A stretch of 39,834 nt of DNA from Candidatus Woesearchaeota archaeon (GTDB lineage: Archaea; Nanobdellota; Nanobdellia; Pacearchaeales; GW2011-AR1): the NCBI GenBank assembly GCA_964538235.1, contig CAZIFJ010000004.1, positions 1-39,834 of the forward strand. The letters run 5' to 3'. Numbering within the stretch: the stretch's first letter is position 1; each line of letters begins with the position of its first letter. The position numbers and the translations under genes were made by a program. The notes beneath the pieces were generated by a model that saw only the letters and a list, made by a program, of their open reading frames with translations, ran no database searches and had not been told where the DNA came from. Positions 11,768 to 38,067 of the stretch are shown in pieces.

Positions 11768-11937
11768 TGTCAAGAACCAGCCACTAAAGTGACTGGCGTG
11801 TTTGGTTCTTGATCACCTCAAAAATTTTTAATTTTTGATGGCACAAAAATATATTGTATTTTTGTTGTGCTCAAGAATTCTGTTTGCTTACTCACGAACT
11901 AAAGTAGGGAGTTTACGCAAAAAATAATTCTTTAACA
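11768..11937 (-). mobile_element. 170-bp modular palindromic element (family A), copy 1
   Basis: Reverse complement of the 36861-36975 element (13 substitutions and 3 indels over ~118 aligned nt, by eye) with 52 extra nt (two hairpins, 11816-11867) between the modules. Ends are TGTCAAGAA and TTCTTTAACA. Confidence 0.85.
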
Positions 11938-11944
11938 TATTAAA

Positions 11945-12266
11945 ATGAATAAGTCAAAGTCAATAAAAAGAAAATTCATAGCAACAATATTTTTCTCAAT
12001 ATATTAAACCAACTTATTCTTTCGGTTTTTTCTGTTGGTTTACTATACTCGCTTCAATCGGTGGAACAATTCACGGAATATTCTTTGATGTAGATTTTTC
12101 TCAAATAAAAAGACTAACAATTGAAGGTTTTATCTTAACATTCATTATTTTATTTCCTCCTTACTTTTACTCGAATGGATTTTTGATTTAGAAATATAAA
12201 GAAGGATTCAAAATTCTTGAGCAAAGAACTCAAATCCTTGAAAAGAAACTAAAGATTAATAAATAA
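11945..12266 (+). pseudogene. Degraded small membrane-protein gene
   Basis: MNKSKSIKRKFIATIFFSI|LASIGGTIHGIFFDVDFSQIKRLTIEGFILTFIILFP is restored by removing 46 bp (12002-12047). Further frameshifts lie near 12158 and 12193 (LLLLEWIFDLE / KEGFKILEQR...). Confidence 0.65.
12001..12047. mobile_element. ~46-bp hairpin element (family B), copy 1
   Basis: ATATTAAACCAAC-ttattctttcggttttttct-GTTGGTTTACTAT, closely similar to 13139-13185; ATA is repeated at both junctions. Confidence 0.75.
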
Positions 12267-36073: not shown

Positions 36074-36478
36074 ATGGAAACAAAAGATTTTTGGATGGTA
36101 TTAATAATTTGTTTAATTGTTTCTGGAATTGTTGCTTTTGGAACTGTCAAATTGACTGGAGATGTTATAAAAGTTTCAGCTGCTAAAAAAGGAACAGAAG
36201 TTTATACAAAATCAGAGGTTGATGGTTCTTTATCCAAACTCGACTCTCAGATTAGATATGGTGAGGGGAGTGTAACTTATGATGTGCTTGTTCGTTTGAA
36301 TAAATGCGAAGTTATTAAGGACAAACAAACTAAAGGAGTTATATCATGCGATATTATTTGTAAAAATAATGGTAATATGCTTTGTGTTGACGCAGACTAT
36401 GAAGGAACTTTAACATCTTGCTCGCAATCGTTTGGGAGTATAAATACAGACAGGTTCTGTAAGTGTTGTGGGTTATAA
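36074..36478 (+). CDS. Small secreted or membrane-anchored Cys-rich protein
   Basis: SD GGAGGT upstream; N-terminal TM then TGDVI; SCDIIC..LCV..SC..CKCC C-terminus. Confidence 0.8.
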   Translation: METKDFWMVLIICLIVSGIVAFGTVKLTGDVIKVSAAKKGTEVYTKSEVDGSLSKLDSQIRYGEGSVTYDVLVRLNKCEVIKDKQTKGVISCDIICKNNGNMLCVDADYEGTLTSCSQSFGSINTDRFCKCCGL

Positions 36479-36524
36479 TAAAATTTAACTTTTTATTTTT
36501 AATTAATCAAAGCAAAATTTATAT

Positions 36525-36544
36525 ACTATAGAATAACTATAGAA
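36525..36544 (+). promoter_or_regulatory. Tandem ACTATAGAA sites between the TATA box and the antitoxin start (putative operator)
   Basis: ACTATAGAA at 36525 and 36536, 11 nt apart; each contains the palindrome CTATAG. Confidence 0.5.
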
Positions 36545-36546
36545 AT

Positions 36547-36777
36547 ATGATTACAACAATTCAATTAAATGAAGATATAAAAAAAGCATTAGATAGATTA
36601 AAATCTAACAAAGAAACTTACGAAGAAGTTATTCTAGGTCTAATGAAAATTGCAGACAAATATAGCAGAGAACAAGAAAGTTTGCTTATAGAGGGTTGCA
36701 AAACAATGGCTCAAGAAAATATAAAAATAACTAAAGAATTTGAATCAATTGAAGATTTAAATAGATGGAAATGGTAG
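36547..36777 (+). CDS. Antitoxin (RHH-like N-terminus) of a MazF/PemK module
   Basis: [26 protein letters not shown] and [12 protein letters not shown] (NdoAI-like C-terminus); overlaps the toxin start. Confidence 0.8.
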
Positions 36778-37233
36778 AAATAAAAAGAGGAGATATTTTC
36801 TTAGCAAATCTTGAACCAACAAAGGGAAAAGAACAAGGAGGAATTCGACCAGTTCTAATATGTCAAGAATTATTTTTTGCGTAACTCCCTACTTTAGTTT
36901 GTGACGAAGCAAAAATAATTCTTGAGCATGCTCAAGAACCAACACATCAGCCACCTTAGTAGCTAGTTCTTGACAATCCAAAATGATATTTCAAACAAAC
37001 ATTCTCCTGTTACAATAATTGCTGCAATTACTTCAAAAATTTATGAAAAAGAGTTTCCAACAAATGTTTTCATTTCCAAAACAATCTCTAATCTAAACAA
37101 AGACTCGACAATAATGTTAAATCAAATAAGAACAATTGACAATTCAAGATTAATAAAAAAAGTTGGATCTCTTAATCAATATTTAATAAGTAGTGTTGAT
37201 AAAGCAATAAAGATAAGTCTTGGACTTTCATAA
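36771..37233 (+). pseudogene. mazF: MazF/PemK endoribonuclease toxin interrupted by a 115-bp element
   Basis: [30 protein letters not shown] | IQNDISNKHSPVTIIAAITSK..QIRTID..AIKISLGL. Exact removal of 36861-36975 gives 115 aa; read-through stops at 36882-36884. Confidence 0.93.
36861..36975 (+). mobile_element. 115-bp modular palindromic element (family A), copy 2
   Basis: 9-bp terminal IR TGTCAAGAA/TTCTTGACA. Module A (36861-36928) and module B (36929-36975) are each self-complementary; no target duplication. Confidence 0.9.
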
Positions 37234-37236
37234 AAA

Positions 37237-38067
37237 TTAAATTCTCAAACCAATTAAAATCGCCTCAATAATAGCAGCTAATAATAAAAGAGGTATGACA
37301 ATCAATAAAAATACTTTTATAGATTCATAAAATCTTTTTCTAAATTCTTTTTTGATATCTTTAGAAAACAAAAACATACCAAGTTTAATTCCCAATCCTA
37401 AAGAAATAAAAACTGCTGTTAATTCAAAAATTCCATGTGGAAGAATTCTCCAAAAATCAGCTACTCCAGAAATTCTCCAAGACAAACTTAAAACAAAACC
37501 TAAAACAATCCCGTTTAATAAGGCCGTAAAAATAGGAAAAATCCCAAGAAAAATTCCGAATAAAAGACCAAACAAAGAGCTTGAAACATTGTTGTTAAAA
37601 ATAAAAAAAGTCAAATCTAGCGCAGAAAGATTTCTTGTTCTTTCAACTAACTCCAACAAAATCTTTTTTAAAATGACAGCCAAATAATCTGAAAAAACAG
37701 CCCCTAAAACAGCCCCAAAAATAAAAAAGCCTAAAATCAAATAAACATAATCTCTGCTTTCTTTAATATAATCAAAACAGCTCTTGTAAGGTTTTTTTTC
37801 AGAATTACTAAAATAAAAATATCCCCCAATACCAAAAAAAATAAAAGCCAGACTGCCTACATAAAAATTAAATTTCTGTTCTTCTCCAAAAAAAATTAAA
37901 ACTTTTGAAAATAGGCTTACTAAATATAAAAATACTCCTCCATAGATAAAAGATTTTCCTAAAGTCGCAAAACCCTTAGGTTTTGTGACCGCCAAGAAAT
38001 CCGCAGCAGGCAGACTATGGGCTAAAGACTGCGAATTTAACGAGCGTTTAAATTTTTCTTTATTCAT
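37237..38067 (-). CDS. SpoIIM / DUF95 membrane protein with a probable in-frame hairpin insert near the N-terminus
   Basis: FIFNNN, LNGIVLG, ILPHGIFEL and LLLAAIIEA. Confidence 0.88.
   Translation of the reverse strand: MNKEKFKRSLNSQSLAHSLPAADFLAVTKPKGFATLGKSFIYGGVFLYLVSLFSKVLIFFGEEQKFNFYVGSLAFIFFGIGGYFYFSNSEKKPYKSCFDYIKESRDYVYLILGFFIFGAVLGAVFSDYLAVILKKILLELVERTRNLSALDLTFFIFNNNVSSSLFGLLFGIFLGIFPIFTALLNGIVLGFVLSLSWRISGVADFWRILPHGIFELTAVFISLGLGIKLGMFLFSKDIKKEFRKRFYESIKVFLLIVIPLLLLAAIIEAILIGLRI
37952..38048. mobile_element. Probable in-frame composite hairpin insert (~93-97 bp)
   Basis: Locally GC-rich. GTCGCAAAACC..GGTTTTGTGAC and AAATCCGCAG..CTGCGAATTT hairpins, then AACGAGCGTT shared with 63-72. 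Confidence 0.55.

Follow-up and report, generated by a model that had tools for sequence, protein, structure and literature searches.

The mazF toxin gene in the window (the whole 39,834-nucleotide stretch of DNA analysed here) is interrupted by a gene-less, 115-bp element of two hairpins, a member of a non-autonomous mobile family with many copies and insertion sites in DPANN archaea. Its members have exact, duplication-free junctions, a target on one side only and conserved, covarying hairpins, and they occupy many independent sites in many genomes. We lean, with modest confidence, towards reading the mazF insert as a decayed copy of a PATE-like, non-autonomous IS200/IS605-type element that was moved in trans by a Y1 HUH transposase.

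RESULTS

The mazF gene is split by an exactly bordered insert

The source assembly (genome G000) comprises 618,678 bp in 27 contigs with about 29% G+C and is 84% complete; the window is its contig C4. The mazF locus contains the following features, all on the forward strand.

36547-36777, forward: antitoxin-like ORF of 76 aa that overlaps the mazF start (Pfam DUF7557, E 1.7e-6; VAPB_antitox, E 2.3e-5, under its cut-off)
36765-36860, forward: mazF 5' fragment, ATG at 36765, 32 codons up to GGIRPVLI (PemK_toxin profile 1-26, E 9.3e-8)
36855-36860, forward: target hexamer CTAATA (host codons Leu-Ile) directly 5' of the left end of the element, from the sequence and the family consensus T-T-(A/G/T)-A-T-A
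36861-36928, forward: left-end (LE) hairpin module, TGTCAAGAA..TTCTTGAGCA, with perfect 15-nt arms; the outer stem covaries over 21 elements
36884-36904, forward: conserved LE core, an imperfect inner hairpin with a TTTA loop; exact match to the core pattern, alignment columns invariant or nearly so
36929-36975, forward: right-end (RE) hairpin module, TGCTCAAGAA..TTCTTGACA, defined by arms and motif; the inner hairpin covaries
36976-37233, forward: mazF 3' fragment, 85 codons and stop, beginning with IQND (IQNDISNKHSPVT) (PemK_toxin profile 27-109, E 6.6e-19)

The two-hairpin insert occupies positions 36861-36975 (115 bp, not a multiple of three), and the mazF frame picks up again at 36976 and runs to the stop at 37233. 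An earlier note, made from the sequence alone, had claimed that exact removal of the 115 bp rejoins RPVLI and IQND, and the profile search bears this out: the first Pfam PemK_toxin match ends on the last residue of the N-terminal piece and the second begins on the first residue of the C-terminal piece, so that profile positions 26 and 27 abut. Among the best 119 mazF homologues, 74 contain RPVLIIQND and 9 contain RPVLVIQND, and the 3' fragment is 80% identical to homologues of 114 aa. The host sequence before the insert (CTAATA) and the end of the insert (TTGACA) have only the final A in common, and the sequence after it (ATCC) has nothing in common with its start (TGTC). Any target duplication at mazF therefore cannot exceed 1 bp, and the placement of the borders is ambiguous by the same single base.

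An 87-aa ORF (36970-37233), which corresponds to gene call P0001, reads in frame into the 3' fragment from a TTG start provided by the final six bases of the element. Another 87-aa MazF, protein P0117, starts with LIIQND and is 69% identical to the mazF fragment of the window; it may represent a second truncated or interrupted mazF elsewhere.

Unitigs of the probable source sample (three runs of one study) covered 36300-36936 and 36916-37500. None crosses the whole element, so that its interior at mazF rests on the original assembly; a 171-nt unitig piece from a second sample crosses the right junction. The unitigs contained the filled site only and no 115-bp skip corresponding to an empty mazF site, but they are blind to rare alleles and uninformative on excision. 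The sole joint listed in them, from 36877 to 36912, is a short-loop variant of another copy.

The element consists of two covarying hairpins

The claim that the insert is built of two self-complementary modules was confirmed. The LE arms (36863-36877 and 36911-36925; 15 nt) and the RE arms (36932-36939 and 36966-36973; 8 nt) are both 100% complementary, and the region folded as single-stranded DNA with z = -4.17. The pattern TCAAGAA..TTCTTGA occurs three times in the window against 0.06 expected, a count reached in none of 100 shuffles. The hairpins begin 2 nt from the element ends, and the last six bases, TTGACA, equal the target TTAATA changed by two transitions. In the mazF copy, the inner RE stem has decayed relative to other copies.

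Twenty-one full two-hairpin elements from different genomes were aligned, and their consensus fold has 40 pairs. Compensatory double changes were found in 15 of these pairs, those of the inner right-end stem among them. Even the first two element bases covary, TG pairing with CA being replaced by CA pairing with TG, and hardly any variation is seen across the alignment in the left-module core or in the right-module TTTA loop. The MITE-like terminal inverted repeat emphasised in the earlier note proved incidental. The subfamily of the source genome has TG..CA termini and a terminal inverted repeat of 9-12 bp, and the repeat matches at 9/9 positions in 11 of the 21 elements; in 6 of the 21, it falls to 7/9 or less (lowest 3/9) while the left hairpins stay paired. 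This indicates that constraint acts on the hairpins and the hexamer, not on the terminal repeat.

Copies are mosaics of an LE hairpin with the conserved core, an RE hairpin, optional middle modules, short-loop versions and nested insertions. In three copies (L054, L057 and L086), the LE core is inverted within an unchanged outer stem, which, judged from the sequences, suggests that recombination between the hairpin arms has flipped the core. Single-hairpin versions were also observed (L084, L061 and L082 at 1200), in which the left module alone follows the same hexamer and ends in ..CTTGACA or ..CTTGATA; from these, one hairpin may be the minimal mobile unit.

Many copies occur in the source genome

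The window contains a second copy, on the reverse strand.

11768-11937, reverse: composite second copy, with RE at about 11768-11815, an extra middle module at about 11816-11867 and LE at 11868-11937 (sequence and BLAST)
11938-11943, reverse: target hexamer TTAATA of the second copy (reverse complement of the sequence)

This stretch had been described as an inverted copy of about 86% identity. It is indeed present on the minus strand after TTAATA, but it is composite: its left module is 91% identical to that of the mazF copy over 65 nt and its right module 84% over 45 nt, and the two are separated by the extra module of about 52 bp. Copies on contigs C23, C21 and C6 match parts of this composite at 98-100% identity.

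Genome-wide BLAST, which the earlier note had suggested, together with motif scans, identified about 15 left ends and about 20 right ends in the source genome, and relatives and metagenomes contain copies too. The 21-nt left-end core has 11 matches in the source genome, against none for a reversed control. Many copies lie at contig ends. Recent activity is suggested by modules that are 100% identical over 45-59 nt between some copies in the source genome; the mazF copy, at 89% identity to the one on C11, is one of the more divergent.

Other small hairpin-repeat families, with CTTTAG/CTAAAG loops, were observed at positions 1-48 of the window, at C17 1-520 and C14 13880-14450, and on C9, C2, C10, C1, C23, C7, C24, C8 and C20, many of them at contig ends. 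The source genome has the appearance of a patchwork of hairpin-repeat modules.

The family is patchy but widespread in a DPANN order

A genome of the same family but another genus (G024) has 24 element matches. Among GTDB representatives, the core pattern was found in 58 stretches from about 20 MAGs labelled Nanoarchaeota, Pacearchaeota or Woesearchaeota; two bacterial chance matches were also among the results. It was further found in at least 120 metagenome stretches, and 11 of the 301 genomes that sample the order evenly carry it. The counts in these three collections show that the family is patchy but widespread in the order. Three core-pattern matches in IMG/VR lack hairpin context and are chance matches. 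One left end that runs into non-repeat DNA (L044) belongs to a truncated copy beside an ordinary gene. In G024, a tRNA-like gene with an apparent intron adjoins an element copy (L027, contig C9, about 560-700).

Insertion follows a host hexamer without duplication

All loci were pooled and every 45-nt upstream context was taken once, which gave 146 distinct left-end contexts. ATA directly precedes the element in 134 of them, and the consensus is T-T-(A/G/T)-A-T-A: at the 134 ATA sites, T occupies position -5 in 132 and position -6 in 131, and position -4 is A in 94, G in 24, T in 14 and C in 2. TTAATA accounts for 91 sites, TTGATA for 22 and TTTATA for 14; the mazF site is the sole CTAATA. The 12 exceptions to ATA comprise nested copies, copies with a flipped core and a small number of variants. 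The bases at positions -14 to -9 are close to background, and no motif was found in the right flank over 39 distinct right ends. The left flanks of the copies are thus non-random, the outcome of the flank tally that had been suggested earlier. TAATA had been taken as the target; a fixed left motif does exist, but it is the hexamer. The first element bases vary by subfamily (TGTCAAGAA in 21, CATCAAGAT in 17, CTGAGAAAA in 4, and others) while the hexamer is unchanged.

Taken alone, a constant hexamer could be part of the element. This is ruled out by four interrupted genes, which show its host origin. Each full element was excised exactly, and a single open frame across the joint was required, with four offset controls. 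Five elements passed with clean controls among 44 from the GTDB stretches, G000 and G024, and six among 72 metagenome elements, one of which duplicates L029. For the four checked genes, exact removal gives a single ORF and none of the four offset controls does.

These genes are mazF, a membrane protein gene (L029), a thymidylate kinase gene (L154) and a GDSL lipase gene (L216). As had been proposed for mazF, the bases before the left end are target: the hexamer consists of host codons in mazF, L029 and L154. In L029, where it encodes ..Phe-Ile, both halves are colinear with 3 of 3 homologues. For the thymidylate kinase, the N-terminal (P-loop) piece matches profile positions 1-19 at residues 19-37 and the C-terminal piece matches 41-167 from residue 12, and the matches to PDB 2yof_A (5-30 and 72-164) also abut. 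This tmk lies on a low-coverage metagenome contig (L154, 3372-4154), where it is split by a 117-bp copy with both halves open. The lipase N-terminal piece matches profile positions 1-34 (weakly, E 0.1) and the C-terminal piece matches from position 48. In L051, the N-terminal piece has no counterpart in six homologues, and the halves at L015, L041, L050, L065 and L144 gave no Pfam family at E 0.01 and only two weak, sub-threshold matches.

It follows from the four in-gene junctions that the element enters 3' of a hexamer belonging to the host, that its orientation to this hexamer is fixed and that no duplication arises. The absence of a target duplication at mazF, claimed earlier, extends to all four genes, with at most 1 bp ambiguous. 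Simple decay into pseudogenes does not account for the intact halves of the four genes.

The target (T)(T)TTAATA, for example at 36853-36860 and 11938-11945 of the window, presumably resembles an archaeal TATA box, and the conserved LE core starts 22-25 nt after the hexamer. By this likeness, element copies might be transcribed from the captured target.

Y1 transposases occur in the order, but none adjoins a left-end core in the loci searched

Matches to PF01797 (Y1) were absent from the source genome, which is 84% complete, and from G024, G109, G321, G324 and G043. Across the order, 78 of 301 genomes (26%) have Y1 transposases; a match was found in 4 of the 11 core-bearing genomes of that sample (G056, G186, G235 and G063), which represents no clear enrichment over the background, and the G056 match is partial and lies at a contig start. 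Four of five further element-bearing MAGs also have Y1 transposases. The intact transposases of element-bearing genomes fall in different clades (L087, L089 and L101). TnpB, IS110-type, DDE_Tnp_1 and rve transposases (PF07282, PF01548, PF01609 and PF00665) gave no match in G000, G024 or G056. The search of G000 with PF00239 gave nothing save a sub-threshold Resolvase-like match, a weak one at C6 8508-8726 (E 9.7e-5, under the Pfam cut-off) inside a 277-aa open frame. Since MAGs lose repeated genes and many Y1 matches in the 301-genome sample lie at contig ends, the absence of an enzyme is weak evidence.

An autonomous copy was sought by tblastn with 10 Y1 transposases against the element loci, the source genome and 120 metagenome and 3 viral stretches. 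No transposase adjoined an LE core in 58 GTDB stretches, the source genome or the 3 viral stretches. Nor did any among the 120 metagenome stretches listed, four of which hold TnpA: in L143 and L182, it lies about 3.6 kb from the core, and in L149 and L218, it is likewise not adjoining. L034 has a divergent transposase as a neighbour.

One Y1 clade (L089, L103, L105, L112-L116 and L254) has ends built like the hairpin element. Its right end is a TTTA-loop stem followed by about 10 nt ending in TGTCA(C/T); its left end, preceded by TTTTAA.., consists of an inner TTTA-loop hairpin enclosed by an outer stem that holds CAAGAAAT. When an HMM of the 39 right ends was run against 97,470 nt of transposase loci, the best matches were right ends of this clade on the transposase strand, at E-values (0.0015 for L105 and 0.028 for L103) that indicate a weak likeness. 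The presumed target of the clade, TTTTAAAG or TTTAAC, is unlike the hexamer of the hairpin family.

The transposase at L087, which has TTAATA and a TCAAGA-stem hairpin upstream, was considered as carrying an element left end and was rejected, seven relatives placing the clade borders further out (TTCATTAC.. and ..TTCATT); by this comparison, the likeness is probably due to chance. IS608-type elements follow a guide-to-target pairing rule and have hairpins further than 2 nt from their ends. A rule of that type was sought by eye in the hairpin family, and no clean one was found.

DISCUSSION

Proposed mechanism and alternative explanations

The one-sided target, the lack of duplication, the exact junctions, the two different hairpin ends and the target-like right-end motif point to the IS200/IS605 route. 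For that family, PMC10055086 and PMC3119063 describe excision that leaves no scar, duplication-free insertion downstream of a transposon-adjacent motif and the movement of PATE-like elements in trans. We infer the enzyme, the single-stranded route and the strand used. A Y1 HUH transposase supplied in trans would bind the two imperfect hairpins of one DNA strand, cut the left end just 3' of the target hexamer T-T-(A/G/T)-A-T-A and cut the right end 3' of the related, element-borne hexamer TTGACA. The single-stranded circle thus released would be pasted 3' of another copy of the target hexamer, with no duplication on entry and nothing remaining on exit. At mazF, the element would have landed after the Leu-Ile codons CTA ATA, breaking the toxin gene and leaving the antitoxin gene whole. 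The HUH-type route suggested earlier is supported in part: one-sided, duplication-free insertion is the IS200/IS605 signature and Y1 transposases are present in about a quarter of the genomes sampled from the order, but the main weakness of the reading is the lack of a Y1 match in the source genome and of an autonomous copy in the collections searched. The weak likeness of the ends (E 0.0015 at best), the hairpins at 2 nt from the ends and the identical modules in a genome with no visible enzyme also count against it.

A tentative alternative, which we consider clearly less probable, is that the hairpin element is an orphan moved by an unrecognised enzyme other than a Y1 HUH transposase, comparable to SMR-A of Haloquadratum. 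Its size (115-121 bp), the terminal inverted repeat of most copies, the lack of duplication and the strong target preference correspond to the published description of SMR-A (PMC3119063), as do nested insertions into the hairpins of other copies (L029, L030, C21 7945 and L063). The absence of PF01797, PF07282, PF01609, PF00665 and PF01548 from G000, G024 and G056, save the partial Y1 match of G056, and of an autonomous copy from the loci searched also fits an unrecognised enzyme. However, a one-sided target and hairpins that covary where the terminal repeat is not conserved are what an HUH mechanism predicts, the order contains related Y1 elements whose TTTA-loop hairpins are similar, and repeated transposase genes are often lost from MAGs at contig ends. 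Taken further, the hairpin elements would form a self-standing DPANN class of duplication-free transposons, independent of recognised transposases, with reversible in-gene copies and possibly target-driven transcription, a proposal that we regard as rather improbable. Their mover would then be an unrecognised enzyme or one from the host cell or a virus, and the copies in mazF, thymidylate kinase, lipase and membrane protein genes may be tolerated through precise excision or RNA-level removal and so act as reversible switches.

Removal at the RNA level, by a bulge-helix-bulge intron or by other splicing or bypass, would leave the interrupted genes functional. The fact that both halves are open in four of the four checked in-gene copies, with exact removal restoring the frame, fits this idea, as does the identity of one of the genes, since thymidylate kinase is normally essential. 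We nevertheless judge it very unlikely. An archaeal bulge-helix-bulge intron has two 3-nt bulges, a 4-bp helix apart, at its junctions, whereas the predicted RNA and DNA folds consist of two self-contained blunt hairpins with unpaired exon flanks, in which flank and element form no common helix and the junctions lack 3-nt bulges. A search of 36500-37300 against Rfam gave no family (the best match, to a miRNA, is at chance level, with E 0.054 and a score of 24.5 bits where the gathering score is 90), most copies lie outside genes by a reading of their flanks, and 115 nt is not divisible by three. Least probable of all is a classical DDE-type MITE with a target duplication of 1 bp or none. The TG..CA termini and the terminal inverted repeat of the source-genome subfamily are of the expected kind, and the 1-bp A at mazF could formally be duplicated, but no duplication longer than that base is seen at the four junctions, the target motif is confined to the left side, the terminal repeat has been lost in subfamilies whose hairpin is retained, and DDE_Tnp_1 and rve have no match in G000, G024 or G056.

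Comparison with known systems

The literature searched, which excluded supplementary element and MITE tables, held no description of the hairpin family. The earlier statement that the element belongs to no described family thus stands for the family, but its kind is already known, from PATEs, the SMRs and bacterial REP/BIME sequences with their RAYT. REP, BIME and REPIN sequences are short imperfect palindromes in mosaic arrays, found in bacteria and moved by RAYT, a Y1 HUH enzyme related to the IS200 TnpA, whose single-copy gene is flanked by the repeats. The hairpin family resembles them in its short imperfect palindromes and mosaic arrays; unlike REP/REPIN, it has no GTAG-type 5' tetranucleotide and has two distinct ends and a one-sided target, and no RAYT-like (PF01797) gene was found in the 84% complete source genome.

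PATEs (palindrome-associated transposable elements) are non-autonomous IS200/IS605 derivatives moved in trans, and, as described in PMC3119063 and PMC10055086, they resemble the hairpin family in their near-terminal palindromes, lack of target duplication, many copies and short fixed motif at the left end. As described there, published PATEs lack terminal inverted repeats and have ends in common with a resident IS605-type transposon. The hairpin family, in contrast, has a 9-nt terminal repeat in most copies, hairpins at most 2 nt from the ends, a hexamer target and a mosaic build from hairpin modules; the loci searched contained no cognate transposon. According to PMC3119063, SMR-A of Haloquadratum walsbyi is about 110 bp long, has prominent inverted terminal repeats, makes no duplication, reaches tens of copies, has a strong target preference and inserts into the palindromes of other elements, and its mobilisation is called enigmatic. 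The likeness to the hairpin family in size, terminal repeats, lack of duplication and target preference is one of description only. SMR-A belongs to a different phylum and, as described there, targets the palindromes of PATEs and IS605 elements, whereas the hairpin family mostly uses a free hexamer.

Classical DDE MITEs are likewise small and non-coding, with terminal inverted repeats and many copies, but PMC11602168 defines MITEs by target duplications of 2-10 bp, which the hairpin family does not make; the same survey reports DPANN archaea as MITE-rich, including one MITE-rich Woesearchaeal genome. The hairpin family differs from these known kinds in its hexamer target, its terminus-reaching hairpins that mimic a MITE repeat, its BIME-like mosaic and its spread among DPANN archaea with no linked transposase.

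Implications

The element explains the 87-aa "MazF" gene call of this genome and similar truncated calls, which bears on annotation. With 146 sites, one hexamer and four exact gene junctions, the family offers a clean natural set of data on how a duplication-free route selects its targets, and its ends are concrete DNA substrates for testing archaeal Y1 transposases. If no Y1 enzyme moves it, the family would join the SMR repeats of Haloquadratum as evidence for an unknown archaeal transposition route. Little mobile DNA is generally assumed for the tiny genomes of DPANN archaea; in this case, a single gene-less hairpin family accounts for tens of copies in each genome of 0.6-1 Mb, fragments assemblies at contig ends and disrupts genes.
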